Shown here: in pieces, positions 1 to 23,231 of the stretch | How the letters are laid out: each line of letters begins with the position of its first letter | How positions within the stretch are numbered: position 1 is the first letter of the stretch | IMG/VR virus record: IMGVR_UViG_640753023_000011 | Direction: 5' to 3' (one strand) | From: a virus | Lineage: Duplodnaviria > Heunggongvirae > Uroviricota > Caudoviricetes | Length of the DNA: 29,986 nucleotides | Made by a program: the position numbers and the translations under genes | The notes under the pieces: model-generated | Told to the model about the DNA's origin: nothing | Databases searched by the model: none | The model's input: the letters and a program-made list of their open reading frames with translations, nothing else

Positions 1-535
1 TTACACCATACTGTTAACCTGGCCGGGTAATTCGCTAGCTGGAATACGAAAGGTATACCAGGCATAACGACAGCGTTTCCACAGGCTGGAGAAATGGAGA
101 TGATAAAGGCAATCTGCAATAATTTCGTTATCTGGATATAAAGACTCGGCAAAATGTGTCCAGCGCGCACTGAGTTTCATGTTAAACAGTTTTTCATCTT
201 CTTTGTTACCATACAGGCGCGACAAAGTAATCATTGCTTCGAGCGTACCTTTATTCGCTTCTTCTTGTACCTGTTGGAGGTGCAAATGAGCAAGTGAGAG
301 TTCTTTCACCTCAAAGATATTAAGTAAAAAAAGCCCCCATGCTTTTTCATGTCCAGCTTCATGAGCCAGAAATAAATTGTCAAGGAGATTTTTTTCATAA
401 ATAGCCCGTGTTTCTTTAGAAATTTCTTGTTTATTTAGTGCCTGGTAGCAGATAGCAATGCTAAAATAAATATTTTGTAGATCTTGTTGATGTTCGCTAT
501 AACCATAATTTTTACCAGTGGATAAGATACCGAGC
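1..535 (-). pseudogene. 3' continuation of the 435..2147 gene in another frame (helical, Sel1/TPR-like repeat-looking region)
   Basis: Manual minus-strand translation shows the frame of the 1..309 ORF stays open up to a stop at 535-537, overlapping the end of the 570-aa ORF, whose last ~35 aa look low-complexity and out of frame. Consistent with one ~700-aa gene split by a frameshift near 535-560, or a sequencing error. Confidence 0.35.
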
Positions 536-2147
536 TATGGAAATTTAGGTCATCTTGAAGTATTTTAAGTGCCCGTCGAAAATACTCCAAAGCTGTAGAT
601 GGTTCATAAGGTAATTTTGTATTGTCTTCCTTATCCAAATATTCAAGAGCAACTAAATTTAATGCGGCAGGAATATTTCTTTGCTTACCAATTGTCGCAA
701 GCGGAATGAAATAATCAGAAAGGTCAAACCAACTCAAATCTTTTATTGCCGACCGCCAATTATGATTGTATTTAATGTCACTAGCTTTTTCCAGCCAAGC
801 ATCGCCCTGCCCTTCATCTTTTTCAAAACCCAAAATACCCTCTCGCTGGAAAAACCCCCTATAAATAACAGGTGTAGCATAAGTTGTATTCTGTGAATTT
901 TGGCAGATAAAATTATATATCCAGAATGAATCTGGATAATAACTTAATGCAAATTTTATCGCGTACGCAGTGTAATAATTATTGAGCTTCATGTCTTCCA
1001 TCACCGCTCGCTGTATACAGCACCACAACTTATCGTGATCGTTCTGCTTGTTATAGCAGGCAAGTAACCACTCTAGGGCATTATGGCGACATTCCTGAAA
1101 TTGTGCGTACTGAGCAATATTCTCTGCTAAGTCGATTGCATATTGTTGCTCCTCGGGCGCAATGTCCTCAATGCTGACATCTCGGTAATCATCCCACCAA
1201 AGTAAGAGATCCATATAGTCATGTTCTTCGGTAGATAAGTGCTTACAGGTTACTGAATCCAGCAATTCGGAAATTTCTTTATGCGACCCTCCCCAGCGTG
1301 GCATTCGAAATGGTATATATTCAACAAAAGGATAAAAAGTGTGAGGAAAAATAGTCAGGCAAACAGAAAGCCAATATTTTTGCCCACCATCATCATCATA
1401 CTCAGGAAGTATATTGGGGCGAGGCAAAACGGGGCATATTGCATGCTCAAACGAAAGTCCGGAATACGCCATCAACGCTTCCACTTCTTGCGGGGAGCGG
1501 CGGTGATAATTTTTCAGTGCGATCATTAATGGTATTCCTGCGACACTATCACCGTTAAGGTGTGCCGCCAGCCAGGCTGGCTGACCAAATACTTTTGAGT
1601 TGGTGCTGGTAAGTAATGCAGCCATCCATTGTCGTGGGTCACAATCAATTGCTTTAAGTGTAGCGATGACCATTTGTTCATTACATGCACCAGCACAAAG
1701 CCACATTGCATGTGTGGTATCATTTGCCCAGCCATAACTGCGATATAACCATGCACGGTGATTCCAGTATTGTGCTTCGGCAAGCCAGGCATGTGTAGAA
1801 TGAGGTCTTGCTTGCTGCCAGGTTTTAATGAGTCTTAAACCTTCTGTTCCGGCATCAACTAGCGTGTTCATATCATAAAAATAGTTGCACATTTGGGTCC
1901 AGGATAAAAAATAGCGCTTTTCAGCCTGACGAGAAGTGAAACTCTCCTGTAATACCTGGTTATAAATTTCATCTAGTTCCTGATAACGTTTTTCTTGTAA
2001 CATATAAGGAATATTTGCGATTTGCCATTTTCTCTCAAGAGTATTAAGTGGCATTTTTTGGTCACACATCTTTTGCATTGCACTGAGTAAACGAGCATCC
2101 TGTTCCATAGATATCCTTTTAATTAGGTTCAAAAATTTTAAATTCAT
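435..2147 (-). CDS. hypothetical protein, Trp/Tyr-rich, 570 aa as called (probably frameshifted near its 3' end)
   Basis: Long ORF in the track; AT-rich codon usage; start overlaps the upstream 238-aa gene by 29 nt, suggesting an operon. No family recognised by eye. Confidence 0.55.
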   Translation of the reverse strand: MNLKFLNLIKRISMEQDARLLSAMQKMCDQKMPLNTLERKWQIANIPYMLQEKRYQELDEIYNQVLQESFTSRQAEKRYFLSWTQMCNYFYDMNTLVDAGTEGLRLIKTWQQARPHSTHAWLAEAQYWNHRAWLYRSYGWANDTTHAMWLCAGACNEQMVIATLKAIDCDPRQWMAALLTSTNSKVFGQPAWLAAHLNGDSVAGIPLMIALKNYHRRSPQEVEALMAYSGLSFEHAICPVLPRPNILPEYDDDGGQKYWLSVCLTIFPHTFYPFVEYIPFRMPRWGGSHKEISELLDSVTCKHLSTEEHDYMDLLLWWDDYRDVSIEDIAPEEQQYAIDLAENIAQYAQFQECRHNALEWLLACYNKQNDHDKLWCCIQRAVMEDMKLNNYYTAYAIKFALSYYPDSFWIYNFICQNSQNTTYATPVIYRGFFQREGILGFEKDEGQGDAWLEKASDIKYNHNWRSAIKDLSWFDLSDYFIPLATIGKQRNIPAALNLVALEYLDKEDNTKLPYEPSTALEYFRRALKILQDDLNFHSSVSYPLVKIMVIANINKIYKIFILALLSATRH

Positions 2148-2835
2148 TCCACGGCAATTTTTTCCAGTTACTGGATGGATCTTTCAACCATGCAGTGACT
2201 TCCTTTAAATCACGGTTCGCAGTGGCGACGGGGGTATCGTATATCATTAACCATTTTTGTCGGGCGCGAACATAAGCACTGGCATAATCTTCCCATGAAG
2301 CGAAACAATCTTGTGCTCTTTGAGCATTCAGTAATAACACTATCCAGGCCTGGTTTTCATCGCACCAGCCTAAACCGGCGATGCAACGAGTTAAAAAAGC
2401 AGTGCGCATACAGTCAAACGCCAGCCCATCCAGAACCTGGCCTTGTGCTGCCAGTTGTTCGTAAAAATCATGTGGAGAATTACCAAGCCCTGTAGCCCAG
2501 CGCTGTAATATAACGCCAATTTGTTGACGGAAATCTTCGTTGCTTTGGTAAGTTTCTGTTCCTAGCTCTTGTTTAACCTGTAGTGCAAGTTGTTGACGCT
2601 TATCATCAGTCAACTTTAAATCTAACGTGAAGCCATTTACTGACAGTCCATTACGACGAGCAACTATATCACCAATTGCTAATGCCCACTTACGTCTCTT
2701 TGTTGCTCGTCTTTTGTCCTTGATTAGATCCTTTTCTTTTTCTTTAGCAATAAAAGCATCGATTTGTGGTTTGTTTTTTTTGTATCTATAGATAAAAATA
2801 AATATTGCGACCAGGAGAACAATGATAAGACTCAT
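2119..2835 (-). CDS. hypothetical membrane-anchored protein (single N-terminal TM helix then a basic/charged linker), 238 aa
   Basis: ORF track; N-terminus MSLIIVLLVAIFIFIYRY is hydrophobic, followed by a Lys/Arg-rich stretch; its start codon overlaps the stop of the upstream 404-aa gene by 1 nt. Confidence 0.55.
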   Translation of the reverse strand: MSLIIVLLVAIFIFIYRYKKNKPQIDAFIAKEKEKDLIKDKRRATKRRKWALAIGDIVARRNGLSVNGFTLDLKLTDDKRQQLALQVKQELGTETYQSNEDFRQQIGVILQRWATGLGNSPHDFYEQLAAQGQVLDGLAFDCMRTAFLTRCIAGLGWCDENQAWIVLLLNAQRAQDCFASWEDYASAYVRARQKWLMIYDTPVATANRDLKEVTAWLKDPSSNWKKLPWNEFKIFEPN

Positions 2836-4049
2836 TATTTTTCAACCTCTGACAGGGGTAAGTAATGAGATGTCTGTAATGTCAAACTCTCTATCTCAAA
2901 GGAAATGTTGCTGATATTTTGACCTGCAAATTGCGGATGCCACTCAGCGCCAGGGAATAACATTTCCGCAGAAGTAGCAACTATAGGGTCAATAGCATTA
3001 AGATAATGTAACTTATCAGGTGCGCTGTGTAACAGTAACCACTGCAACTCCACTGAAGGATTTGTAAAATGTTCTAATAAATGAAAGTTATTATGTAGTA
3101 CGCTTAGTAAAAAACTGGTTTCGTATACTTCCGTTACATATTTCCACCCCTGATATTCAGGTGTATTTTCATAAACAATACCCATACCTTCACAATCACT
3201 ATGTCGAACTGCTTGTGGTGATAATAGTTGCAAAAGAGACAAAACATCGTCCGCATATTTTTTAACTGGATGACGATTTTGCTTACCTTTTATTTGATCA
3301 ATTTCAAGTGAATCACCAACAACATTGAGAGCAATAGTAACATGAGGAATATTATTATTATCACGCAAACTGAATAACCGTAATTTATGTTGCTCAATTT
3401 GATTTGCATAATACTCACCATAACCACCGGTAAGATTTTTTCGATCATCAAACTGGCCTACGCAATGTTGCATATGCCATGATTCATAAGCCATTTCACG
3501 ACGAAGGTTCGAATGACTGGCATCAAACTCAACAATTTTTCCGTCTGGCACATCAAGTATTGACTTTACAGTATTTTGTTCACTCGGCTGCCACCCTTTC
3601 TCGCGTCGTTGAAGCATCTTTTCATGCTCTTCTTCACGCATTCTGAACGCAACGTAGCAGGTTATGCGCTGTAGTTTTGATTCCAGACGGGTACCACATT
3701 TCCTGGAAAGAAATTCCACCAACTCCCGTTCTTTGGTTAATATTTGTTGATGATCGGTTTCGATATAATAAAGTGTCGCAGTTGATACTGAGGCAGTATT
3801 AAACTTCGATACCAGCCATTCCGGGATTACATCATCATTTTTATTAAACAGTGAATATTCTGCAAGCGAGTTAATTTGTTGCACCATTGGAAAGTCACTA
3901 ATTAGCCATCGATAAAAATGGTTGAGTAACCATTTTTGGATGGTCTCATTATCCTGGCGAAACAGACTTCTTTGCAAAATTGCTGTTTTTACTTCCGGGG
4001 CATTAATTACATCCCTTGCATTATAATTCTGGTGAATATTTCCAGTCAT
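2835..4049 (-). CDS. hypothetical protein, 404 aa, first gene of the AT-rich three-gene operon
   Basis: ORF track; AT-rich; preceded by a ~450-bp AT-rich non-coding region (4050-4500) likely holding its promoter. No motif recognised with confidence. Confidence 0.55.
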   Translation of the reverse strand: MTGNIHQNYNARDVINAPEVKTAILQRSLFRQDNETIQKWLLNHFYRWLISDFPMVQQINSLAEYSLFNKNDDVIPEWLVSKFNTASVSTATLYYIETDHQQILTKERELVEFLSRKCGTRLESKLQRITCYVAFRMREEEHEKMLQRREKGWQPSEQNTVKSILDVPDGKIVEFDASHSNLRREMAYESWHMQHCVGQFDDRKNLTGGYGEYYANQIEQHKLRLFSLRDNNNIPHVTIALNVVGDSLEIDQIKGKQNRHPVKKYADDVLSLLQLLSPQAVRHSDCEGMGIVYENTPEYQGWKYVTEVYETSFLLSVLHNNFHLLEHFTNPSVELQWLLLHSAPDKLHYLNAIDPIVATSAEMLFPGAEWHPQFAGQNISNISFEIESLTLQTSHYLPLSEVEK

Positions 4050-4536
4050 AACATCCGCCCGTGTTTATTATATCACTCAAAGCAATAATTGTTGACTATA
4101 GATTTTTTATCTAAATCAGCATGGTTGCAGGTACATACTCAAGTAAGCCACTCAAGAAAATAACGTAAACTCAATAGTGGCAGCGTCACAAACTTTGGAA
4201 ATTATGTCTTATATTTGCAGTTTATTTTAGTGAATAATTGAGATAAATGACATTATTTTACATCCTCAATAATTCAGGCTGTAAGAGGACGGCAAATACA
4301 TTCATAATTATCAGGGGATGAACATTCAGGAAAGTAGTCAGTATCGTCAACTTTTTCTTTTATCACTACATGAAGATTTCGTGTAGATACTCCCATCTCT
4401 GCCACTTCTCCCCTCACATTTACACTGGAGCTAAACCCGCCGATTGCGCTACAATGCCCGCCCTTAAAGTGGGGGCACTCCCCTAACCGCTTCATCAGGT
4501 GAAGCGGCTCTGACCTGTCATCAGAACGAGAGAATT

Positions 4537-5898
4537 ATGTTTAAACCGGAACTCCTTTCCCCGGCGGGAACGCTGAAAAATATGCGTTACGCTTTCGCTT
4601 ATGGCGCAGATGCTGTTTATGCGGGCCAGCCGCGTTACTCCCTGCGTGTACGCAACAACGAATTCAACCACGAAAATCTTCAGCTCGGCATCAATGAAGC
4701 CCACGCGCTGGGGAAAAAGTTTTATGTCGTGGTCAACATTGCACCGCACAACGCCAAGCTGAAAACCTTTATCCGTGACCTGAAACCGGTGGTGGAAATG
4801 GGGCCGGATGCGCTGATTATGTCCGATCCAGGGCTGATTATGCTGGTGCGTGAACACTTCCCGGAAATGCCAATCCACCTCTCGGTACAGGCTAACGCCG
4901 TAAACTGGGCGACGGTGAAATTCTGGCAGCAAATGGGTCTGACCCGCGTGATCCTCTCTCGCGAACTGTCACTGGAAGAGATTGAAGAGATCCGCAATCA
5001 GGTGCCGGATATGGAGATCGAAATCTTCGTTCACGGCGCGCTGTGCATGGCCTACTCCGGTCGCTGCCTGCTCTCTGGCTATATCAACAAGCGCGACCCG
5101 AACCAGGGCACCTGCACCAACGCCTGCCGCTGGGAGTACAATGTCCAGGAAGGGAAAGAAGATGACGTCGGCAACATCGTACACAAGTACGAGCCGATTC
5201 CGGTGCAAAATGTTGAGCCGACGCTGGGTATCGGCGCGCCAACCGACAAAGTGTTTATGATCGAAGAAGCCCAGCGTCCGGGCGAGTATATGACCGCGTT
5301 TGAAGATGAGCACGGCACTTACATCATGAACTCGAAAGATCTGCGCGCCATCGCCCATGTTGAACGCCTGACCAAAATGGGCGTGCATTCGCTGAAAATC
5401 GAAGGCCGTACCAAATCTTTCTACTATTGCGCACGCACCGCGCAGGTTTACCGTAAAGCTATCGATGACGCCGCTGCGGGCAAACCGTTCGATACCAGCC
5501 TGCTGGAAACGCTGGAAGGTCTGGCGCATCGTGGCTATACCGAAGGTTTCCTGCGTCGTCATACCCACGACGATTATCAGAACTACGAATACGGTTATTC
5601 GGTTTCTGACCGCCAGCAGTTTGTTGGTGAGTTTACCGGTGAGCGCAAGGGGGAGCTCGCGGCGGTAGCGGTGAAAAATAAATTCTCCGTTGGCGACAGC
5701 CTTGAGCTGATGACGCCGCAAGGCAACATTAACTTTACCCTTGAGCATATGGAAAACGCCAAAGGTGAAGCGATGCCGGTCGCACCAGGCGATGGTTATA
5801 CTGTGTGGCTCCCGGTGCCGCAGGATCTTGAGCTAAATTACGCGCTGCTGATGCGTAATTTCTCCGGGGAAACCACGCGTAACCCCCACGGTAAGTGA
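4537..5898 (+). CDS. yegQ: peptidase U32-family protein YegQ (TrhP)
   Basis: 453-aa ORF whose sequence I recognise as E. coli YegQ; typical core-genome GC content; synteny with cyaR immediately downstream. Confidence 0.9.
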   Translation: MFKPELLSPAGTLKNMRYAFAYGADAVYAGQPRYSLRVRNNEFNHENLQLGINEAHALGKKFYVVVNIAPHNAKLKTFIRDLKPVVEMGPDALIMSDPGLIMLVREHFPEMPIHLSVQANAVNWATVKFWQQMGLTRVILSRELSLEEIEEIRNQVPDMEIEIFVHGALCMAYSGRCLLSGYINKRDPNQGTCTNACRWEYNVQEGKEDDVGNIVHKYEPIPVQNVEPTLGIGAPTDKVFMIEEAQRPGEYMTAFEDEHGTYIMNSKDLRAIAHVERLTKMGVHSLKIEGRTKSFYYCARTAQVYRKAIDDAAAGKPFDTSLLETLEGLAHRGYTEGFLRRHTHDDYQNYEYGYSVSDRQQFVGEFTGERKGELAAVAVKNKFSVGDSLELMTPQGNINFTLEHMENAKGEAMPVAPGDGYTVWLPVPQDLELNYALLMRNFSGETTRNPHGK

Positions 5899-5982
5899 TT
5901 AATTTCGATTATTTTTCCCGGATGGAAAATTCTTAGAAACCGATCACATACAGCTGCATTTATTAAGGTTATCATCCGTTTC

Positions 5983-6069
5983 GCTGAAAAACATAACCCA
6001 TAAAATGCTAGCTGTACCAGGAACCACCTCCTTAGCCTGTGTAATCTCCCTTACGCAGGCTTATTTTTT
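5983..6069 (+). ncRNA. cyaR: CyaR (RyeE) small RNA
   Basis: Sequence gctgaaaaacataacccataaaatgctagctgtaccaggaaccacctcc... matches CyaR as I recall it, ending in a terminator hairpin (gcctgtgtaa/ttacgcaggc) plus a T-run; lies downstream of yegQ as in E. coli K-12. Confidence 0.85.
6043..6069. other. prophage attachment core, ogr-proximal copy (attR), overlapping the cyaR terminator
   Basis: 27-bp sequence aatctcccttacgcaggcttatttttt is repeated directly at 29314-29340 with 2 mismatches; the repeat matches the P2 att core as I recall it. Confidence 0.75.
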
Positions 6070-6132
6070 ACGCGTAACACAATGAAATAAAAGGATTTAT
6101 TTCTGGTCACGTCCACACATTGACCACATCGA

Positions 6133-6158
6133 CAAAAAAGCCCCTCGACTGAGGGGCT
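6133..6158 (-). terminator. rho-independent terminator downstream of ogr
   Basis: GC-rich inverted repeat gcccctc-gact-gaggggc followed on the minus strand by a T-run (plus-strand A6 at 6134-6139). Confidence 0.55.
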
Positions 6159-6170
6159 TCCTGTTTGTAA

Positions 6171-6389
6171 TTACATCCACATAATTTGCTGCCCTGACGG
6201 CAACGGGGGCGGTCTTACGGCGTGGACTTCTCCCGGCTTCACGATGTATCGCTGTACCGACTCATAAGTGATGAATGTGGCGCTGCAATTCACGTTCTGA
6301 CACTGGTGATAACGCTCTTTTGTCGTGTCAGTGATATAGCGGCTTGTACGCGCATGTGCGGCATGCTGGCATAAAGGACAATGAAACAT
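6171..6389 (-). CDS. ogr: Ogr, zinc-finger late-gene transcriptional activator (72 aa from MFHCPLCQ...)
   Basis: ORF contains MFHCPLCQHAAHARTSRYITDTTKERYHQCQNVNCSATF, the Ogr Cys4 zinc-finger sequence; the track ORF (6171..6452) has a 21-codon N-terminal extension that is probably not translated. Confidence 0.85.
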   Translation of the reverse strand: MFHCPLCQHAAHARTSRYITDTTKERYHQCQNVNCSATFITYESVQRYIVKPGEVHAVRPPPLPSGQQIMWM

Positions 6390-6470
6390 CGCGAGCACCT
6401 CTTCCGGTTTTGTTGATGGTGCTATTTTAGTTAATTTATCCTTATAAAACAAATAGATAAAATAAAAACA

Positions 6471-7634
6471 TCACTCATCATCTTCTGTTTCGTACTCCAC
6501 ATCAGAAAGCCTGACCTCAAGCTCCAAGGACGTCGTGAAGCCGCTATTATTCAGAAAATGTGTCACCTTAGTGATTGTCCAGTCCTGCTCGTCTATGACG
6601 CGCTTAAAGCCTGACACTTTAACCGGTGTTTCCGTGTAAATATCTGCCCGACCGGTAGCCAGGCTGATGGAGAACTCCGCAACGCCCCGTTGCAGCTTAT
6701 CCCACTTCGCCTGAGCGGCGCGCATGGCCTGCGCTTTCGTGGCATATACCGCGGTCAGGGCAAAAACATTGTCAGCCTCACCTGCCATGTATTCACCTTC
6801 GCGCGCTTCCGGTACTTTTGGCGCTTTCTTCTGCGTGACTGGTTTCGCTTTCGGGTGCTCCAGTGCGCGCAGGTGTTTCTCTTTCTTTTTGCGTTTCAGT
6901 TTTACCTTCTGCTTTTGTGGCTTCGGGTCTTTGGTGTGTAACCACTTTGCCGTTACGCCGGTATAGGCTCCACGGTCAGCAATCGCAAAATGATGGCGGT
7001 CGCCGTCGCTGCGGGTGATGGTAATCTGCGGGATTTTTTTACCGCTGGCCGTCACCCCCTGCCCCGCCTTGAGAAACAACAGTTTTCCCATTTTTACCGA
7101 CACCTCACCGCCGTTGCGTTCAGCAAGGCGGGTCAGGAATTTTGCATCAGACTCCTGCGACTGGTCGATGTGCGGGATTTTAATTCCGGCCAGTGACGGA
7201 GCGACACTGGCTTCCAGCCTGTTACGGGAGGCTATCGCTTCAACAATCGCACCGAGCGTGGTGTCATGCCAGGAGCCTTCACGGCGGGAATTGAGCGTCC
7301 CGCGAAAATCTGCACTCCGGGCGCGGATGGTGACCACATCCGGTGCGCCCCGGTGTTCAACCTCATCAACGGTAAATTTCCCTTTGCATACCAGGGCAAA
7401 ACCTTTCCAGCCGATATACACCGTCAGGACAGCGCCACGAACCGGCAGCCCGACCTGCCCGTCGGCATCGTTCAGTTCAATATCAAGCTGGTCAGCCTCA
7501 AAGCCCCGGTTATCCGTCAGGGTCATGCTCATCAGACGGTCGCTGATATTGCCGGTAATATCCCTGTTGTCGAGCATCAGCATGTAATCCGGCGTCAGCG
7601 TACTGCCTGCATCAAATGTCAGTGCATCCAGCAT
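6471..7634 (-). CDS. D: P2 gpD-like tail protein (late control gene D)
   Basis: 387 aa, same length and position as P2 D, between ogr and U. Confidence 0.8.
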   Translation of the reverse strand: MLDALTFDAGSTLTPDYMLMLDNRDITGNISDRLMSMTLTDNRGFEADQLDIELNDADGQVGLPVRGAVLTVYIGWKGFALVCKGKFTVDEVEHRGAPDVVTIRARSADFRGTLNSRREGSWHDTTLGAIVEAIASRNRLEASVAPSLAGIKIPHIDQSQESDAKFLTRLAERNGGEVSVKMGKLLFLKAGQGVTASGKKIPQITITRSDGDRHHFAIADRGAYTGVTAKWLHTKDPKPQKQKVKLKRKKKEKHLRALEHPKAKPVTQKKAPKVPEAREGEYMAGEADNVFALTAVYATKAQAMRAAQAKWDKLQRGVAEFSISLATGRADIYTETPVKVSGFKRVIDEQDWTITKVTHFLNNSGFTTSLELEVRLSDVEYETEDDE

Positions 7635-8127: not shown

Positions 8128-10575
8128 TTAACCGTCATGCATCATGCTGGCACGGGCGCGCGCACGTTTATCCCGCTCGTATTTTTCGAGCGCATCCTGT
8201 AACTGGCGGTCAAGCTGTGTCCCCGGCGCAGTACCACCCGTCAGGCTGATGTGATATTCGTTTTTACTCTGGTCCACATAAGAGCGGCCAGCCGGTGCCG
8301 TGACCGGCTGATAAGCCTGATAGCCTGCATAAGAGCTGGTCGCCGGAATATAACCACCGGTGCCATACGTGGCGGCATGAGTTCTGGCGGCGGTCTGGTC
8401 AAGTGTGTCTGACTCTTTGTTGATAACACCGAGTTTTTCCAGTACCCAGTCAATACCGCTGCGCAGTTTGTTGAACGCATTAAGCGGCAGCATCAGCGCG
8501 TCAGCCAGTGCCTGCCCGAACATGACGCCCGTGTCACGGCAACGGTTCAGGGTGTCCCGGGTGGCTTTAACCGGAGCAATCAGGTTTGTAAACCACTGCC
8601 ACGCGGCCTGTAACTTTTCGCCCAGCCAGTCAAACACCGGCTTAAGTGGCGTGAACAGCTCCCCCACCGGCGCAAATGCCGCTTTCAGCCCTTCAACCAC
8701 ACCGCCAAAGAATGCGCTGACAGGCTCCCAGTATTTACGGATAAGCAACGCCCCGGCGACAATGGCAGCCACCACGGCCACAACCGGCCAGCTAATCGCC
8801 CCGATGGCCGTCATAACAGCACTGCCAACCGTCGTGAAGATTGCCCCCATTGCGCCTGCTGCCGCGATAATAGCATTGATGCCGGTGATAACCGGCCAGG
8901 CTACGAGGCCAATGGCACCAATGATGCCAGTCAGCGCCAGTGCACCACCGGCAATTAGGCCAATGGTTAACGCCAGTGATTTGTTTTTCTGGATCCAGCC
9001 GTCGAGTTTTAACACATACTTTGTGGCCGTCTGCGTGAGCTTACGCAGTGCGCCTTCCTGCTGGTCAAACAGGTCAGTCCCCACCGCCTCATAAGCGGAC
9101 TGAAACTCCTTAAAGTCACCGCCGAGGTTGTCCTGCATGATATTTACCAGTTCTGCGGTCTTTCCGTCTGAGGCTTTAAACGCAGCGGTCAGTTTGTCCA
9201 GCTTTCCGGTTGAGGCGGCAGTCATCAGCACGGCGGCGGCTGAACTGGCCTCCTCCCCGAAAATGGTTTTCATGTATTCAGCCTGCTGGGCAGTACCGAG
9301 CCGGTTTTTCTCAAAACTGGCCTGCATTTCTTTCAGAATGGTAAATACTGGTCGGGTGTTTCCCTTACTGTCTGAGGTTTTCACACCAAGCTCTTTGAGT
9401 GCATCCCATGCTTTTCCCGTCGGTGCCTGCAGGCGGCTTAACACGGCACGGCTTCCCGTTCCCGCCATTGAACCGGTAATTTTTGCATCATGCAGCGCCC
9501 CGACCATTGCGGCTGTTTCTTCAATGCTGACACCGGCATTTTTTGCCACAGGTGCGGCATAGGTCAGCGCATCGCTCATACCGTCAAAATCGGCGGCGGT
9601 TTTGTTCATCGTCATGGAGAGAACATCCCCGATATGAGCGACCTTATCGTTTGAAAGCTGAAAGGCGGATTTCATCCCCATCAGCAGGGCGGCGTTTTCT
9701 TCCATCGTGCGGCGGTTCGCCAGCGCCATATTCAGCGTGACCGGCGTTGCCGCCTGAATGGCATCAACATCCCCACCGGCTTTCGCAATGATAATCTGCG
9801 CACCGGCAGCATCATCCGCCGAGGCGGCTGTGTTGTCGCCGAGCTGGCGCGCCTGTTTGCGTAGCGCGGCCATTTCGGCAGAATCTTTTGCCACACCGAG
9901 CACGGCCTGTAATTCTGAGTTTTTCTGCGCAAATTCATAACCGGGCATCAGCAGCTTAACACCGGCCATCGTTCCCGCCGCCGCAATCCCCACACCGGCA
10001 GCGCCCACTGAGGCCATATTTCCGGCCAGCTCCTTTCCTGCCTGATAGCGCTGTTTTACTGCGTTAAGTTTTGCCTGTTGCGCACTGACACGCGCCAGCG
10101 CGTCACGCTGCCGGTTAAGCTGTGCGGTGGTTTCACTGATACGGTTTTTCAGCCCCAGCTCATCATGTGCAAGATTGCGGGTATTAATTCCCACAGCGGC
10201 CAGTTCCCGCTGCTGGCGTTTAACGGAATCCGTCAGGCGGTTATATTTCGCCTGTAAGTCCTCCGCCGCACGCTTTGCGGATTCCAGCACTTTCGCCTGA
10301 GCACGGGTCGGACGTTCAGTGTTTTTAAACTGTGTGGCAAGGGCTTCGGCCTCCTGCCGTGCCTTTTCAAGTGCATGACCAGTCACGGCGAGCTGTGCGC
10401 TGGTCTTGCGAAATCCCTCAATACGGGATGCCTGACCATTCAGCTCGCGCAGTGATTTTTGTGTTTCCCGGATATCCCCCGACAGCGACTTGCTCGCTGT
10501 GCGGATGGATTTAAACGGGCGGGATGCCTGGTCAACAGCCCTGAGCAATACCTGTAATTTTACATTGTTACTCAT
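8128..10575 (-). CDS. T: tail tape measure protein (gpT-like)
   Basis: 815 aa; coiled-coil-rich N-terminal part, Gly/Ala-rich hydrophobic central segments, typical of tape measure proteins; lies downstream of E/E'. Confidence 0.85.
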   Translation of the reverse strand: MSNNVKLQVLLRAVDQASRPFKSIRTASKSLSGDIRETQKSLRELNGQASRIEGFRKTSAQLAVTGHALEKARQEAEALATQFKNTERPTRAQAKVLESAKRAAEDLQAKYNRLTDSVKRQQRELAAVGINTRNLAHDELGLKNRISETTAQLNRQRDALARVSAQQAKLNAVKQRYQAGKELAGNMASVGAAGVGIAAAGTMAGVKLLMPGYEFAQKNSELQAVLGVAKDSAEMAALRKQARQLGDNTAASADDAAGAQIIIAKAGGDVDAIQAATPVTLNMALANRRTMEENAALLMGMKSAFQLSNDKVAHIGDVLSMTMNKTAADFDGMSDALTYAAPVAKNAGVSIEETAAMVGALHDAKITGSMAGTGSRAVLSRLQAPTGKAWDALKELGVKTSDSKGNTRPVFTILKEMQASFEKNRLGTAQQAEYMKTIFGEEASSAAAVLMTAASTGKLDKLTAAFKASDGKTAELVNIMQDNLGGDFKEFQSAYEAVGTDLFDQQEGALRKLTQTATKYVLKLDGWIQKNKSLALTIGLIAGGALALTGIIGAIGLVAWPVITGINAIIAAAGAMGAIFTTVGSAVMTAIGAISWPVVAVVAAIVAGALLIRKYWEPVSAFFGGVVEGLKAAFAPVGELFTPLKPVFDWLGEKLQAAWQWFTNLIAPVKATRDTLNRCRDTGVMFGQALADALMLPLNAFNKLRSGIDWVLEKLGVINKESDTLDQTAARTHAATYGTGGYIPATSSYAGYQAYQPVTAPAGRSYVDQSKNEYHISLTGGTAPGTQLDRQLQDALEKYERDKRARARASMMHDG

Positions 10576-10995
10576 TCGTGTTTCCGCTTCGCCGGAGCGC
10601 CTTTTCGCGCCATGTGATGAGTTCGGTCAGGCTCATGGGATACAGTTCTGATGGCGGCCAGTGAAATATCACTGCCACATCCGCCATCAGGTCATCGACC
10701 GAGAGATTTTTCGGAAACGTCACTGCACCGAGTTCGGCGACAAAAAACCGACCACCTTACCGGCCAGCGCCACAAGGTCAGGCAGTTCCAGCGCGGCGAC
10801 TTCCTGCTCGGTCAGCATCGGTGCCGTCATGCGCGGCAGCACCTTAATCAGTGCATCGACTTCGGAGTTTGCAACCGCAGCCAGACTGACACCGCGTAGC
10901 GTCCCGGCACTGGGTTTCATCAGCGTGACCTGTTCGATAACCTGCTCACCACGTTTGACCGGATTGTCCAGGGTAATGACATTTTCTTTGTTCAT
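10568..10995 (-). CDS. E: tail assembly chaperones gpE (10720..10995, 91 aa) and the -1 frameshift product E+E' (extends to 10568)
   Basis: The E ORF ends ...VVGFLSPNSVQ*; the mRNA contains the slippery heptamer T_TTT_TTG (plus-strand caaaaaa at 10741-10747). My manual translation of the -1 frame runs open from there to a TAA at 10568-10570, overlapping the T start codon. Confidence 0.75.
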
Positions 10996-11051
10996 GGTTT
11001 TCTCACTTCTGAATCAGGGTTAACCGGCCAGCCAGGCTGACCGGATGAAAA

Positions 11052-11570
11052 TCACAGGCCGATATTGCGGCGGTGTTGCTCCAGCCGATCGACGCCGTTC
11101 ACCTTCTCAATCATGTTGATGGTGTCAATTTCGACCAGCTCCTTACCGTCCATCGTCAGCCGGAAATAGGTGCAGACCACGGAGATTTTCGACTCAGTGT
11201 CTTCTCCCTGTTTACCCTCGCCGGTGTCGATTTCTTTCTGACGTCCACGCATGACCACTTCGACGGCCACCGTTTCGCCGGTATCGTCGCGCTGGTAAGA
11301 GCCTGCAAAACGAATCGGCACGGCATCCACACCGGTTGCGGCGTAAAGCTCCCAGATAACCGAATCCGGGAAGCCACCGAGCGACCACTCCATTGACAGC
11401 GCATCGTCATCAAGGCCGAGGTCTACCGGTGCGCTGCCGTTCATCCCCGCACCGCGATAGTTTTCGAGCTTACGGGTCAGTTTTGGCAGCGTGACGGACT
11501 TTGCAACGCCCTGATAGCTGTAGCCGTTCAGAAAGACGTTCATTAACTTGAGTTTGCGCGGCATTGCCAT
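11052..11570 (-). CDS. FII: tail tube protein (gpFII-like)
   Basis: 172 aa; position immediately downstream of the sheath gene as in P2. Confidence 0.8.
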   Translation of the reverse strand: MAMPRKLKLMNVFLNGYSYQGVAKSVTLPKLTRKLENYRGAGMNGSAPVDLGLDDDALSMEWSLGGFPDSVIWELYAATGVDAVPIRFAGSYQRDDTGETVAVEVVMRGRQKEIDTGEGKQGEDTESKISVVCTYFRLTMDGKELVEIDTINMIEKVNGVDRLEQHRRNIGL

Positions 11571-11582
11571 CGGTCAGGCTCC

Positions 11583-12443
11583 TTAATTGCTGTTAACCGA
11601 GGTGACCAGATTTGCCAGGTATTTATCGGTAATACGCTGGCGCAGGGTCAGGTTTTCGAGAGGAGGCACCGGTGTATAGTCGTAGTCGATATACAGTTTT
11701 CCGGCCTTGAGGGTTTCCGCATCGTTGGATTCTTCGCTGAACCAGCATGAGCCATCCACGATATAGCCGTTTGTTTTCAGCTCACGGAATTTGGCATTGA
11801 TGCCGTCAACGATATCGCGAATCAGCGTTGCGGTGATGGGCTTGTCCACCGCCCACATGTGCGCCTCAGCCATCGTGTCGGCCAGCACCTGCGCGGTGCG
11901 GGTGTAGTTTTCAAAGAGAAACAGCGGGTCATCAGAGCAGGTACGGTTACCCCAAAAGCGGAAACCGTCGCGGCGAATCAGCGTAGTGACGCCTGACTCG
12001 TTAAGCAGGTCAGCATCGGTGCCGGACTCCTGCAAATCCCAGAATACAGAGGCGCTGATGCCGGTAACACCGTTTACCCCGACGTTGGACAGCGTTTTAT
12101 GCCAGCCCTGCTCCTGGTCGATTTTAGCGCGCAGACCCAGCGCACGGGCGGTGGCATACGCGGTGGCGGTGGTACTGGTGACCGTATCCCATGCGAGGAA
12201 ATCCGGCCAGATGACCATCAGCTCACGCTGGCTGAAATTCTGGCGGTAGGCTTTCACCTCGGAAATGGTTTTACAGCCCCATGCGCTGATATACCCGAAA
12301 GCGCGCAGCTTCTGACAGACGGATGCCAGTGCAACAGCCACCTCTTTGGTATCCAGTCCCGGCACACCGAGAATACGCGGTTTAACACCGGTTACCGACT
12401 CCGCCGCCAGCAGGTGCGTATTACCGTGAAGGAGATCGGTGAG
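11583..12443 (-). pseudogene. FI: tail sheath protein (gpFI-like), 5'-truncated at the IS boundary
   Basis: 288-aa ORF where ~390-400 aa is expected for a myovirus sheath; the ORF's first codons lie at or within the IS21-family left end. Confidence 0.75.
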
Positions 12444-12499
12444 TAACATCGATGGAGATCGGTTCGTGTCACTTTCACAGAACCGTTTTTAAATTACCT

Positions 12500-13249
12500 T
12501 CACTGATCTCCTTCGGTCAACGGAGATTGTATTTTCCGCATTGATTCTCCTTTAAGTTCGATCTTGATACTGCCATGAACCAGTCGATCTAGGATGGCAT
12601 CCGCATGTGTGGAGTCTCCGATCATTTTGTACCAGTTTTCCACCGGCAACTGGCTCACTACGATGATTGAGCCTCGTTGGTACATCAGATCCACTATTTC
12701 CAGCAGGTCGCTACGCTGTTCTGATGAGAGAGGTTCCAGCCCCCAGTCATCCAGAAGCAGCAGATCGCTATTATTCAGCCTGGTCAAAAGTTTGCTGTAT
12801 CTTCCATCAGCATGCCCCTGATAGCACTGTTCCATCAGCGCTTTAAGGCGATAATAGTAGACCTTGTATCCCTGTCGGCAGGCATTATGACCAAGTGCAC
12901 ATGCCAGGAACGTTTTACCGCTGCCGGTGGCCCCGGTCAGTAAAATATTTTGTTTCAGGGTTAACCAGTTTCCCTGACTGAGTGAACGGATGAGGGCCCT
13001 GTCCAGCCCTCTATTGTTACGATAATCCAGCTTTGATAACTCAGCATTAAGTCTGAACCGTGCATGTTTGATCAGACGCTCTGCCTTCCTGTTTTCACGG
13101 CAGGTTAGTTCTTCTGCTGTCAGTAATGACAGGCGTTCTTCGAAGCCCAGCTCCTGGTATGTGCCCGGCTGAGCAAGTTGCTTTTTAAGCGCATCACGGA
13201 AGCCGGTGAGTTTAAGTGCGGTCAGTTGTTCGTAAAGATGATTCATCAT
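12500..13249 (-). CDS. istB: IS21-family IstB transposition helper ATPase
   Basis: 249 aa with Walker A (GATGSGKT) and Walker B (LLLLDDWG) motifs; located downstream of istA. Confidence 0.85.
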   Translation of the reverse strand: MMNHLYEQLTALKLTGFRDALKKQLAQPGTYQELGFEERLSLLTAEELTCRENRKAERLIKHARFRLNAELSKLDYRNNRGLDRALIRSLSQGNWLTLKQNILLTGATGSGKTFLACALGHNACRQGYKVYYYRLKALMEQCYQGHADGRYSKLLTRLNNSDLLLLDDWGLEPLSSEQRSDLLEIVDLMYQRGSIIVVSQLPVENWYKMIGDSTHADAILDRLVHGSIKIELKGESMRKIQSPLTEGDQ

Positions 13250-13260
13250 TGGATCCCGTA

Positions 13261-14803
13261 TCAGTGGTAATACTCACTGCCGCGTACGTTTTCGTGTTCC
13301 ATCGTGGATAACAGATCTGGTTTTGGATCCTGAACAGGTTGTTTATCCAGACCTTTTTCCAGGATCGATTTAATACCTGACAGACGCCATACCTTTGTTT
13401 TCAGAGCTCTTGCACATGCTGCATTAAGTCTGGCTTTACTGTATTTTTTATGAAGGTTCAGGAGTCCAAGGCAGAAGCGATAGCTTTGTTCCGGATGTGG
13501 ACGAGAGTTCAGTATATGAAGCACATAACTATGAGTTTCACTGCCTATGTGCCCCGCCCATTCCAGAAGACGCTCTGGCGTCCAGGTGGCATGCTGTCGA
13601 TGAGCTTCAGGCATGTGCTCGTTGCGGGTACTGTAGCCATAAGTACGCTTGCGCGGGTGCACAGCAACCTCCTGCCCCTGATTGAAGAGTCTTACCAGTT
13701 CTCCGGAGATCCATGCTTCCAGTTGCTGGCCTAACAGCGAACATGGAACCGAGTAGTAATGTTTGTCGATTTCCACGTGGTAATCGGCATGAACTCTGAC
13801 TTTCTTCACCAGGGTGTAACTGTAACTGGCTTCAGGAAGAGGCTTCAGTGCGGGTTTATCAAGCTGGATGAAGAGTTCTGCACGTGAATAACCCAACTTC
13901 TGCATTATTTTGTTATTCAGTCTTTCCAGCAACTCCCGAATGCGCTGATTAAGCGATGCAAGGCTGTAGAAGATCTCATGCCTGATTCGGGCCATGATCC
14001 AGCGTTCAACAACCTGAACGCCAACTTCAGCTTTGGCTTTATCTTTTCGGTTTACGTGGCCGCGCAGGCAAAACTGCGACATTATAATGCTCAAGCATCT
14101 GCTGGTAGGTAGGGTTAACGTCAGGATCATACTTACATGCCCTGGATGTGGCGCTTTTCAGATTGTCCGGAACAACAAGTTCAGGAACGCCACCCAACCA
14201 CTGGAAGCAGCGAACATGACTCATCACCCAGTCTTCAAGCTGCTGAGACCAGGTGGCCTCTGCCCATGTGTAACTTGATGCCCCGAGAACAGCTACGATG
14301 ACCTGAGCAGTTCTTATTTCTCCGGTCTCAGGGTCGGTAACGCCAACGGTAGGTCCACAGTAATCAACGAAAAGTTTTTCGCCAGCTTTATGTACCTGAC
14401 GCATTGATGGTGAAGTGGTTTTGAGCCATTCACGGTACATCCGGCAGTAATGGTTATAGCTGTAAAAACCGCCTGGATTACGCTCACAGTATTCTTCCCA
14501 GAGTAGCTGCAGCGTCACGCATTTATTACGCAGTTCCCGGTGTACTGTAGCCCAGTCAGGCAGAGAGTGCTTCTTCATCTTAACCTGGGTCTGAAGGAAC
14601 GCATGTTTTAGTTTTGTATCATCCCATCCTGTAGGTAAGGGCCACTGCTTTATGCCAAGTTGAGCCGCCCGATTAGCATATCTGGATACAACGGAAGGGG
14701 AGATTGCAAGACTACGACCAATTTGTCGATGGCTGAGTCCAACACCGTATTTAAGCCTAAGAATTTCTTTAAGTTTTCTCATAGAAATTGGAACTGTTGG
14801 CAT
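13261..14803 (-). pseudogene. istA: IS21-family IstA transposase, split by a frameshift into 254-aa and 289-aa ORFs
   Basis: N-terminal ORF (14039..14803) has an HTH and ends ...RPRKPKR*; the C-terminal ORF (13261..14130) continues in another frame with ...[11 protein letters not shown]...; the shift maps to a T4 (mRNA A4) run at 14044-14047. Confidence 0.7.
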
Positions 14804-20905: not shown

Positions 20906-21955
20906 ATGTGCTACACTTTTATACAAACCTATGATAAAAGCGATAAAAAATCTTCCATTTTGGCGAACATTATGACGGATATTGAAACAGCTCGATGGAA
21001 CACAGAAAGTGCCGCTTTGTTGGCACTATCAGAAATACATGGCGTTAGTTATTGGACTCTATATAAAGTTGCTCAAAAGGGAATCAGATTTAGAGACATT
21101 GTTACCAGCCAAACATTAGCCAACTTTGAGTATCTACTTGGAGTAAAACTTCATCGCCAACCTTATTATTTGAATGAAGGCAATTGGTCTGTTTTTCGGG
21201 ACAGCATGATTTCTACGGCTAAAATATTACTCACACATTATCATAATAGTGGTTACAAAATCATCCACCATGGTTCTCCGAGCTATCCAGACAAGTTGAA
21301 TGATCTGTCTGAGCCGCCTTTCTGGTTGTTTGCTCAAGGCAATGTATCCTTGCTAGATAAAAAGTGTGTTGGAGTTGTCGGCACCAGAAACCCAACCGCA
21401 CTTGGAATTTATTTAACTCAAGCAGTAATCTCGCAATTTATAGATTCGGATTATTCAACTGTAAGCGGTTTAGCATATGGTATAGATCAATCTGCACATG
21501 AAGCATCCCTGCTATTTAAAATACCGACAATTGCTGTGTTAGGTACTGGCGTAAACTCAAATTATCCCAAAAATAGTGGCGAGATGAGAGGCCATATTGT
21601 AAATAATGGCGGACTGATTCTTACTGAGTATTTACCAAACCAAAAACCATCACAGGAAAATTTTGTTCGTAGAAATAGAATTCAAGCAGCTTTAAGTGAT
21701 GTATTGATCCCAGTTGAATGGGGCCTAAAAAGTGGGACATCTCATACTGTGAGATATGCTGCTCAATTAAAAAGAGCGATACTTTGTCCTTTACTTAGGG
21801 GAACTACACCTCAAGAAGAGATTAAACATGCCTTGTCAGAGTACTCAGCTACGATAATGAATATTCCACTATCCGATTTTAAAGACGTGCAAAGCTTAAT
21901 TAAATCAGCATCCGGTGTAAAAACACAGCAACTTTCTCTTCTGGGAGATGAATAA
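20906..21955 (+). CDS. DprA/Smf-like (SLOG-type Rossmann) protein; candidate ShosA-like antitoxin or sensor
   Basis: Motifs CVGVVGTRNP, SGLAYGIDQSAHE, TIAVLGTGVNSNYPKN, ENFVRRNRIQAALS and SGTSHT follow the conserved spacing of the DprA Rossmann domain; the N-terminal region has an HhH-like segment; AT-rich; true start may be M23 (20972). Confidence 0.7.
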   Translation: MCYTFIQTYDKSDKKSSILANIMTDIETARWNTESAALLALSEIHGVSYWTLYKVAQKGIRFRDIVTSQTLANFEYLLGVKLHRQPYYLNEGNWSVFRDSMISTAKILLTHYHNSGYKIIHHGSPSYPDKLNDLSEPPFWLFAQGNVSLLDKKCVGVVGTRNPTALGIYLTQAVISQFIDSDYSTVSGLAYGIDQSAHEASLLFKIPTIAVLGTGVNSNYPKNSGEMRGHIVNNGGLILTEYLPNQKPSQENFVRRNRIQAALSDVLIPVEWGLKSGTSHTVRYAAQLKRAILCPLLRGTTPQEEIKHALSEYSATIMNIPLSDFKDVQSLIKSASGVKTQQLSLLGDE

Positions 21956-23231
21956 TATGTATTTAAAGGCAGTTATATTTTCAATCGCAGATGTTGTATT
22001 ACCATTAACATCTAACACTCAACCTCAGGAACTAAAATCTAGAATCGACTCTGAATTACGTAAGTTGTTTGCGTTTTTGTCATCAAAAGGGATTAAAGTT
22101 ATCTTCTTGACAAATAAAAATAGAAACGTGAGAACACATGACGGGATCGTAACACTAGACGAATACCTAAAAAGGAAATTCCCAGAATCAATTCACTTTT
22201 GCCGTGAACTCGACAACAACATACCAGCAAAACAAACAGGGAAGGCCATAGATTTCATCATGGCTGCGTTAGAATTAAAACGAAACGAAATGATCTATGT
22301 AGGGCGTTCTCAGGAAGACTTACAAGCAGCTACCAACGGGAATACCCTATTTATTAATGCGACCTGGTATGAACCGGTTACTGAGTACGGTTTTCAATTT
22401 TCAGAACCCAAAGAAATCGCTAGATTTATTGATGTCTTTTGCTTAAGAGAGCAGTTGTGGGGATGGCAAGGGCATTTTAATGAAGATGTTCACTACTACG
22501 CCTTAGCACCATTTAGCACATATGTCCCTGAATTTACAATGTATTCAGCCAATGCAAGAGACCTCGCAAAGCTATCGGTTGGAAGCCCCGATTTTTGGAT
22601 AAGATATCTTGGTGCTAGCATTTATTTCTCTGGCTTAAGTGAAGGAGCAAGTTTTATAACCACCTACGTTGGACATAACGCTGAAGATCCTTATAAACTA
22701 GCAAACATTATGGAGCATGACCTAAAAGGTTTAGCAGTTTCATTCAAAGGAAAGTATCTAAAAGATCTATTCTTACGACATACAACAGCTATTAAATCAC
22801 AGCAAGCTCGGATAGCTAAGCAAGAAGTAAACATCACATCTCAAATAAACACAGTTAATTTAAATCCTGCCCCTATTAAAAACCTCATCACCGGCGAAAG
22901 ATATACCAACCCTCCTAAATTGAAAGGTAAGAAAATATTAGTTATTGATGATTTTTGCACTGAAGGAAATGCTCATGAAACAGCCAGAATGTATCTAAAA
23001 GCTGCAGGCGCAAATGTAATAAATATATCGTGGTTAAAAACCATCAATCGTGACGTTTCTATCTGTGAACCAACTCGCAAGATACGGCCATGGGAGGCCA
23101 ATACACTTGATGTTGATGACATTAACTATGTCGGTACGATTGGTTATGCTGAAAATGTAACTCACGGTAGTGCACCTCAAGTGTTATCAGAAAAAATTCA
23201 ACAATATGATAACTGGGACTGGCCACAATAA
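21948..23231 (+). CDS. two-domain protein: N-terminal HAD-like fold with atypical motif I, C-terminal type I phosphoribosyltransferase (PRTase)-like domain; candidate ShosT-like toxin/effector
   Basis: C-terminal KKILVIDDFCTEGNAHETA fits the PRPP-binding motif of type I PRTases; N-terminal AVIFSIADVVL...VIFLTNKN...K...IYVGRSQEDL resembles HAD motifs I-IV with both motif-I Asp positions substituted; overlaps the upstream gene by 8 nt (alternative start at 21957). Confidence 0.65.
   Translation: MNNMYLKAVIFSIADVVLPLTSNTQPQELKSRIDSELRKLFAFLSSKGIKVIFLTNKNRNVRTHDGIVTLDEYLKRKFPESIHFCRELDNNIPAKQTGKAIDFIMAALELKRNEMIYVGRSQEDLQAATNGNTLFINATWYEPVTEYGFQFSEPKEIARFIDVFCLREQLWGWQGHFNEDVHYYALAPFSTYVPEFTMYSANARDLAKLSVGSPDFWIRYLGASIYFSGLSEGASFITTYVGHNAEDPYKLANIMEHDLKGLAVSFKGKYLKDLFLRHTTAIKSQQARIAKQEVNITSQINTVNLNPAPIKNLITGERYTNPPKLKGKKILVIDDFCTEGNAHETARMYLKAAGANVINISWLKTINRDVSICEPTRKIRPWEANTLDVDDINYVGTIGYAENVTHGSAPQVLSEKIQQYDNWDWPQ

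Follow-up and report, generated by a model that had tools for sequence, protein, structure and literature searches.

What is encoded by the AT-rich DNA that adjoins yegQ in the IMG/VR virus record IMGVR_UViG_640753023_000011, and what could its products do? The window considered here is the whole of this stretch of 29,986 nucleotides (nt), which is assigned to the Caudoviricetes. A sequence-only reading had described a minus-strand operon of three genes at this position and had speculated that it was a horizontally acquired module connected with defence, with effectors and immunity or with chaperones. That observation is partly confirmed and its interpretation partly supported. The region is not an artefact, nor is it housekeeping DNA, and its genes form a conserved module that is an undescribed combination of known, uncharacterised families, including two named as domains of unknown function (DUFs). 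It is also well supported that these genes make up most of a four-gene island which was acquired horizontally and occupies a hotspot between yegP/baeR and yegQ. Within the window the module consists of the following features, given by position, strand, content and basis:

2835 to 4049, minus strand: PcfJ-like protein, 404 amino acids (aa), cytoplasmic (Pfam PcfJ)
2119 to 2835, minus strand: DUF1266 protein, 238 aa, with an N-terminal transmembrane (TM) anchor and an all-helical domain (Pfam PF06889)
435 to 2108, minus strand: putative DUF4034 scaffold gene, N-terminal 557 codons, truncated by a frameshift (Pfam; start backed by a Shine-Dalgarno sequence)
509 to 513, no strand: homopolymer T5 on the plus strand (A5 on the coding strand), the frameshift site; E. 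coli ATCC 11775 has T6
1 to 512, minus strand: rest of the DUF4034 gene, C-terminal ~170 residues in another frame (alignment to ATCC 11775, translation)

The three minus-strand open reading frames (ORFs) that had been listed are present at 2835..4049 (404 aa), 2119..2835 (238 aa) and 435..2147 (570 aa), and ORFs of such length in AT-rich DNA are not due to chance. Their GC contents of 37.8%, 40.7% and 40.7%, against 54.3% for yegQ, bear out the contrast in composition that had been noted, which extends to third codon positions (30-37% GC in the island ORFs, 64.5% in yegQ). Equally real are the 1-nt overlap and tight coupling of the first two genes, PcfJ-like and DUF1266, which meet in a TAATG junction at 2835; the N-terminal TM helix of the 238-aa protein, formed by the hydrophobic segment MSLIIVLLVAIFIFIY and followed by basic residues; and the richness of the third protein in tryptophan (3.6%) and tyrosine (6.3%). 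The statement that none of the products could be assigned to a family is superseded, since Pfam identifies a PcfJ-like, a DUF1266 and a DUF4034 protein and the NCBI annotation already does the same. Hidden Markov model searches thus provided a Pfam family for all three proteins, and NCBIfam and PHROGs returned nothing useful. The matches to DUF1266 (PF06889; E 9.5e-19, 68.7 bits against a cutoff of 27) and DUF4034 (PF13226; E 1e-101, 340 bits against a cutoff of 21.3, with the full length of the model covered) are clear of their cutoffs, and that to PcfJ (PF14284) is marginal, at 26.2 bits against a gathering cutoff of 25 (E 7.5e-6, residues 141-268); NCBI names the 404-aa protein 'PcfJ domain-containing'.

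That the three proteins belong together is apparent from a survey of 86 loci in about 30 genera, 80 of them from species-representative genomes and six from elsewhere, in which ORFs were called and searched by jackhmmer with the E. coli proteins. PcfJ-like homologues are widespread in the gamma- and beta-Proteobacteria, and homologues were recovered from Klebsiella, Salmonella, Citrobacter, Serratia, Burkholderia, Variovorax, Pseudomonas, Lysobacter and Rhizobium. A DUF1266 gene directly follows the PcfJ-like gene in 85 of the 86 loci, the one exception being a contig end. Two architectures differ in the third component. Type A, found at about 40 loci in 13 genera (including Escherichia, Klebsiella, Citrobacter, Burkholderia, Variovorax, Lysobacter and Chitinilyticum), has a DUF4034 gene downstream. 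Type B, found at 43 loci in 17 genera (including Pseudomonas, Trinickia, Ralstonia, Cupriavidus, Delftia and Acidovorax), has instead a protein of ~780 aa with weak TPR matches, encoded upstream and overlapping the start of the PcfJ-like gene. The possibility that this type B partner is a diverged DUF4034 protein was rejected at the sequence level (hhalign probability 0.5%). The components also occur joined in one chain. Fusions of PcfJ-like and DUF1266 proteins (600-690 aa, with a linker that contains no TM segment) exist in Lysobacter, Rhizobium and others, P0232 unites PcfJ with TPR, and P0220 is a triple fusion of PcfJ, DUF1266 and TPR whose gene stands alone amid housekeeping genes. P0135, which had appeared to be a DUF1266-DUF4034 fusion, results from an internal deletion and is not counted as evidence. 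ORF clustering across 84 loci revealed no conserved partner gene beyond the three; histidine kinases lie nearby in 18 of the 84, a frequency that by rough estimate is compatible with chance. The three proteins are thus shown to be co-inherited as a unit across many genera, the first two being almost invariably adjacent and translationally coupled. One variation on this arrangement occurs in a metagenome-assembled genome of Rhizobacter (L032, 10005-14044), where two tandem DUF4034 genes follow the PcfJ-like and DUF1266 genes.

How the module came to lie beside yegQ can be read from the distribution of the island in E. coli and from the state of the same site in other genomes. Two further features of the window delimit the island on this side:

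4050 to 4415, minus strand: AT-rich region upstream of the operon, 34.7% GC, still within the island
4416 to 4446, no strand: right-hand island boundary; sequence of ParDE-bearing strains from 4416, sequence of the empty site from 4446

Of 5426 complete E. coli genomes, 297 (5.5%) carry the island; carriers include CFT073, in which the operon has the locus tags C_RS12370-12385, ATCC 25922 and ATCC 11775, the type strain. The site between yegP and yegQ exists in E. coli in at least three states, namely an empty one with 146 nt between the genes, one with a ParD/ParE pair and one with the four-gene island, and the baeR/yegP-yegQ intergenic region is therefore a recombination hotspot even if the module itself should turn out to be unremarkable. 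In K-12 the site is empty. Parts of the left and right junction sequences are common to the ParDE and island states, and no direct (att-like) or terminal inverted repeats were found at the island ends. Examples of the other two states are L002 (5424-6019, ParDE) and L003 (5945-6092, empty); in strain MDR_56 ParD is frameshifted. The E. coli island has ~40% GC against 54% in its flanks, unlike the module in other genera, which matches the GC of its host, and the E. coli copy is thus a separate and fairly recent import into the hotspot. In Klebsiella, Citrobacter and Buttiauxella the module occupies the same position between baeR and yegQ in the opposite orientation to that in E. coli, without yegP or the fourth gene and with host-like GC. 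The nearest relatives, at 62% identity and from metagenome assemblies, lie between yegQ and baeR in the E. coli orientation, together with other added genes. Patchy presence, alternative states of the site, the contrast in GC and the inversion relative to other genera all bear out the earlier idea of horizontal acquisition. The fourth island gene lies outside the window, 60 nt past the DUF4034 stop (L001, 8335-8940, minus strand), and encodes a protein of 201 aa with a signal-peptide-like, lipobox-like N-terminus (…LPANAGC…) and no match in Pfam, PADLOC or PHROG. It is found in the same island in 295 genomes and was seen only with the E. coli version of the module.

A tightly coupled pair of genes in a hotspot that holds ParDE in other strains, with the VipA/VipB proteins of a type VI secretion system near one of 22 representative loci, might be taken for a toxin-antitoxin or a secreted effector-immunity cassette, the latter having been among the earlier suggestions. 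The natural fusions count against this, as the parts are repeatedly joined in one polypeptide, which would be unexpected for a toxin and its antidote. The three proteins have no signal peptides and the TM protein faces the cytoplasm, none of them is small or resembles a DNA-binding antitoxin, and the loci show no consistent vgrG, PAAR, hcp, Rhs or CdiA context of the kind associated with type VI secretion or contact-dependent inhibition. A cassette of this kind is accordingly very improbable, and the effector/immunity suggestion finds no support.

The same hotspot also raises the question of whether the module is an undescribed anti-phage or anti-plasmid defence system, in which the repeat protein would sense an invader protein, the PcfJ-like protein would act as effector and DUF1266 would provide the membrane anchor. 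Its site is variable, accepts ParDE as alternative cargo and lies beside a P2-like prophage that carries the ShosTA defence pair; its occurrence in E. coli is patchy and its DNA AT-rich. Between enterobacterial genera the module proteins share 56-82% identity, against 69-95% for the flanking BaeS, BaeR and YegQ, and so diverge much faster than their neighbours, and truncated copies are found in Salmonella. Giant multi-domain proteins are typical of conflict systems and mobile elements, and the wider PcfJ superfamily includes such proteins, one with an InPase domain. In combining a large repeat protein with a putative effector, and in its patchiness and hotspot location, the module resembles repeat-sensor defence systems (for example Avs/STAND with TPR sensors) and the PADLOC candidate systems; unlike these, it has no NTPase, no PADLOC match and no defence-island context. 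Neither the three ORFs nor the remnant ORF 1..309 matched PADLOC-DB v2 at E up to 0.1, PHROGs gave nothing, and no nuclease component is present either. Among 108 neighbour proteins from the 22 representative loci only two matched a defence model, the generic Ser/Thr kinase PD-T4-6, and the others identified by Pfam were mostly housekeeping proteins (thymidylate synthase, GatB, glutamine synthetase, ATP synthase, regulators), although with a sample of 22 loci this is a weak test of defence-island enrichment. By tblastn the PcfJ-like protein was found on no phage record and on only eight records of the plasmid collection, all of 0.3-1.3 Mb and predicted to be non-mobilisable; within this small sample, then, no signature of a mobile element is apparent. 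In Burkholderia, Variovorax and Klebsiella the module is GC-ameliorated and stably placed. A conflict-type or niche-specific function is suggested by the fast divergence, the patchiness, the hotspot and the decay seen in Salmonella. Evidence against a mobile defence system of the classical kind comes from the missing defence-island context and from the stable, GC-matched copies of Burkholderia and Variovorax. Defence, as guessed earlier, has thus not been demonstrated, and on this balance it is an unlikely explanation.

Is the module intact in the window? Its third gene, previously taken to encode '570+ aa', is really a gene of 702 codons (WP_000434216.1) that has been cut by a 1-nt deletion. 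Over positions 1-4500 the window aligns to E. coli ATCC 11775 with one gap and zero mismatches (reported as 100.0%), and in that strain the intact gene, annotated by NCBI as a 702-aa DUF4034 protein, extends to window position 1. Five T in place of six at 509..513 shift the frame and create the stop at 435, and the ORF at 1..309 is the out-of-frame C-terminal remnant of the same gene. Over the 12.4 kb that align to ATCC 11775 there is no other indel, and within 1-6207 the two sequences do not differ in any other way. When an 81-nt query spanning the site was compared with the 297 island-bearing complete E. coli genomes, all 297 showed T6, the one-gap form of the alignment, and none the T5 of the window; the lesion is therefore unique to the window sequence. 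The missing T is either a mutation peculiar to this strain, in which case the module is inactivated here, or an error in the homopolymer run of the sequence. The 29-nt overlap that had been reported between the second and third genes comes from taking the longest ORF (ATG at 2147). With the ATG at 2108, the third gene starts 10 nt beyond the DUF1266 stop; this ATG has the Shine-Dalgarno sequence AAGGAT 7 nt before it and is identical to the start annotated by NCBI in ATCC 11775 and CFT073.

A frameshifted scaffold gene in the window, together with the truncated versions in Salmonella and the deletion fusion of P0135, is what would be expected if the island were a decaying, pseudogenised remnant with no current role. 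This is the least credible of the explanations and may be regarded as extremely improbable, given that T6 is retained in every one of the 297 complete genomes, that the full 702-aa protein is annotated by NCBI in both ATCC 11775 and CFT073, that long intact ORFs survive in DNA of 38-41% GC and that dozens of residues are invariant among module homologues from Escherichia to Burkholderia and Pseudomonas.

Which of the components might be an enzyme? Catalysis is probably the task of the PcfJ-like protein, which has a predicted GNAT-like alpha/beta core at approximately residues 160-305. Its family takes its name from PcfJ of the Enterococcus faecalis plasmid pCF10 and shares with the island protein a core composed of ExxxMxHCxG, SLRD, PHVT and QxKGKxN. 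Unlike the family at large, the island subfamily adds a conserved N-terminal helical region of ~150 aa and a C-terminal helical region, is chromosomal and always partnered with DUF1266, and occurs neither in the phage collection nor on mobilisable plasmids. A profile built from its members retrieves 2211 cluster representatives at E ≤1e-3, some of which match the PcfJ model of Pfam with up to 88 bits. In 53 distant PcfJ domains the conserved residues are E189, M193-x-H195-C196-V-G198, S227-L-R229-D230, P235-H236-V-T238, Q252-x-K254-G255-K256-x-N258, P261 and K264-Y265, of which M193, H195, C196, G198, S227, R229, H236, T238, G255, K256 and N258 reach at least 91%.

The case for a GNAT-like fold is structural. 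The AlphaFold2 (AF2) model of the 404-aa protein is confident, with a predicted local distance difference test (pLDDT) score of 88.5 and a predicted template modelling (pTM) score of 0.76. Its top Foldseek matches are mostly GNATs (ESCO1, YhbS, SpeG, RibT and FemX), yet with E >= 0.06, and its predicted alpha/beta core superposes on GNATs over ~100-118 residues. From 160 to 305 the order of elements is a beta hairpin, two helices, three strands, a helix and a strand, which fits the N-terminal arm of a GNAT through to beta5. As in GNAT acyltransferases, a conserved glycine-containing loop would occupy the beta4-alpha3 position: the residues Q252-I-K-G255-K-Q257 come at the end of the strand at 247-254 and before the helix at 263-276, with Q rather than G/A in last place. 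The suggestive but imperfect implication is that QxKGKxN, which is conserved more strongly than any other motif in the superfamily, may mark the beta4-alpha3 junction at which motif A of GNATs (Q/RxxGxG/A) binds the pyrophosphate of coenzyme A (CoA), a placement derived from the secondary-structure (DSSP) string and an alignment rather than from coordinates. Pfam and NCBIfam searches at E up to 0.1 gave no acetyltransferase match for the protein, its profile found nothing among PDB sequences at E up to 10, and sequence and profile searches of the PDB gave no relative for any of the three proteins. An alternative assignment of the His-Cys motif to the HCX5R signature of protein tyrosine phosphatases was dropped, as the spacing is C-X6-R, the arginine varies within the superfamily and the position of the motif is not that of a strand-to-helix P-loop. 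Elsewhere in the superfamily, giant proteins of 1100-3300 aa (P0266, P0246, P0243 and similar) contain two to four PcfJ-core domains, one of these giants carrying an N-terminal InPase (PF18823) domain, which suggests that the PcfJ core is a reusable enzymatic module of very large multi-domain proteins.

The remaining two components bear on how such an enzyme could be positioned. In the DUF1266 protein basic residues come directly after the TM helix, which puts the domain on the cytoplasmic side, and this hydrophobic and basic N-terminus is kept in the aligned, unfused homologues of both architectures. Its AF2 model (pLDDT 83) is all-alpha, with the N-terminal TM helix, a long helix and a helical bundle, and comparison with PDB structures gave no informative fold match. 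From its position and fusions, we infer that it is an obligate partner or adaptor of the PcfJ-like protein. For the DUF4034 protein, a link with repeat proteins comes through its relatives: the E. coli protein itself has no match to the Sel1 repeat (PF08238) at E up to 1, and P0143, P0144 and a Lysobacter protein have Sel1 repeats in their C-terminal halves at 25-42 bits.

These two families lead to the known system to which the module is closest in architecture, the DUF1266/Sel1 triads of the HscC cluster of E. coli K-12. There, in ybeQ-ybeR-djlB and ybeT-ybeU-djlC-hscC, the DUF1266 genes ybeR and ybeU each share 4 nt with a J-protein gene, djlB and djlC respectively, and have a gene for a Sel1 protein alongside. 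As in the island, a DUF1266 protein and a Sel1-type repeat protein are accompanied by a coupled third gene that encodes the working component. The DUF1266 domain of the island protein is homologous to that of YbeU (hhalign probability 89%, E 2e-6), and the K-12 triads together with this homology make DUF1266 plus a Sel1-type protein look like a recurring pair with a varying third component. By extension, the module could be a client-specific proteostasis or adaptor module of the hscC-cluster type in which a PcfJ-like protein replaces the J-protein and Hsp70 as working component. In favour are the two K-12 triads of Sel1, DUF1266 and J-protein beside hscC, the homology of the DUF1266 domains and the Sel1 repeats of DUF4034 relatives. 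However, the island has a PcfJ-like protein in place of the J-domain co-chaperone of the K-12 cluster, and none of the loci examined has a J-domain or Hsp70 gene within the module or next to it. Its DUF1266 protein has a TM anchor, unlike YbeR and YbeU, and its repeat protein is far larger (702 aa) and includes a DUF4034 domain. The analogy explains little, since what the K-12 cluster does is poorly known too. The earlier guess of a chaperone association therefore retains the resemblance to YbeR and YbeU, with their Sel1 and J-protein neighbours, and loses the chaperone itself; as an account of what the module does, it is rather less plausible than defence.

The reading preferred here is that the three proteins form a membrane-tethered complex of enzyme, adaptor and scaffold, with probable acylation of a specific target and an accessory role, a tentative proposal whose chances we put at somewhat below even. 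Its steps are given from the most to the least secure. The three proteins would form one complex at the cytoplasmic face of the inner membrane. The PcfJ-like subunit would be the enzyme, its predicted core resembling the GNAT acyl-CoA transferase fold, with the invariant ExxxMxHC, SLRD and PHVT motifs near QxKGKxN. The repeat protein would serve as a scaffold for recognition of a target or ligand, comparable to the TPR subunits that wrap GNATs in eukaryotic Nat complexes. Complexes of a GNAT with a TPR scaffold do exist, for example eukaryotic NatA (Naa10/Naa15), and are alike in that the PcfJ-like protein is partnered with a large helical-repeat protein. DUF1266 would act as adaptor or tether. 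The assembly would then covalently modify, and probably acylate, a specific protein or small-molecule target, in an accessory role that is probably tied to genetic conflict or to envelope or stress adaptation.

Several points weigh against this proposal. Unlike GNAT acyltransferases, the PcfJ-like protein has no sequence-level homology to the group, its candidate CoA loop reads QxxGxQ rather than the canonical Q/RxxGxG/A, and its topology differs after beta5. The invariant His-Cys pair is atypical for a GNAT and may indicate a different chemistry, such as that of a thiol enzyme or a metal site. The two repeat partners of types A and B have no detectable homology to each other, so that 'scaffold' is an analogy. 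The literature searched contained no functional study of PcfJ-like, DUF1266 or DUF4034 proteins: no paper was found on DUF4034, and DUF1266 received incidental mentions only, one of which (EC042_RS03510) concerns, by locus-tag position, a ybeR/ybeU paralogue and not an island gene. A broader formulation, which we consider doubtful, is an undescribed three-component machine in which an enzyme of GNAT fold, or a novel His-Cys enzyme, would be aimed by Sel1/TPR repeats and tethered by DUF1266, for use either in conflict or defence or in targeted protein modification.

The interest of the enzyme-adaptor-scaffold proposal lies in the families that it would connect. All three are widespread domains of unknown function, and the two DUF1266 genes of E. 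coli K-12 lie next to hscC, whose Hsp70 product is poorly understood. Linkage, fusions and the GNAT-like model turn three isolated families into one testable hypothesis with candidate catalytic residues. If true, it would provide a first functional handle on the PcfJ superfamily, known from conjugative plasmids and phage annotations, on DUF1266 including YbeR and YbeU, and on DUF4034. The island carriers CFT073, ATCC 25922 and ATCC 11775 are well studied and genetically tractable. In a transposon screen of CFT073, c2608 ('hypothetical membrane protein') emerged as a candidate fitness gene in systemic infection, with a mouse bacteraemia competition reported for it, and yegR is c2613 (PMC3855560). 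By its position c2608 probably lies in the island.

Upstream of the operon, the leader that had been called long and AT-rich is indeed AT-rich, at 34.7% GC over 4050-4415. Its length is not established, as a sigma-70-like match (TCAACA-17-TGaTATAAT, 4095-4067, a match to consensus only) lies ~18 nt 5' of the ATG of the PcfJ-like gene. Rfam detected no RNA element in this region. A 73-aa ORF at 4274-4495 on the minus strand, in the yegQ-proximal intergenic region, straddles the island boundary and is probably spurious because the junction of island and core DNA runs through it.

Beyond yegQ the window contains a gene for the small RNA CyaR/RyeE (5981-6066, plus strand; Rfam RF00112, 100 bits), between yegQ and ogr, and then the P2-like prophage at 6171-29234, with ogr (6171-6452), gpD (6471-7634), tail genes and an integrase (28221-29234). 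The ShosTA pair in the prophage is complete (20906-23231, plus strand) and comprises ShosA, a DprA-like protein of 349 aa (PADLOC E 2e-231), and ShosT, of 427 aa (PADLOC E 4e-296). Relative to ATCC 11775 the prophage is mosaic: it differs by one base at 6208 and by another 56 from 9934 to 12294, the alignment stops at 12414, and from these substitutions the window derives from a different strain. Its P2-type tail sheath gene is interrupted by an IS21-family element (11583-14803, minus strand), which encodes IstB (12500-13249) and a split IstA with rve and Mu-transposase C-terminal domains (13261-14803). The sheath ORF measures 288 aa, against 397 aa in ATCC 11775, and the prophage is therefore probably defective.

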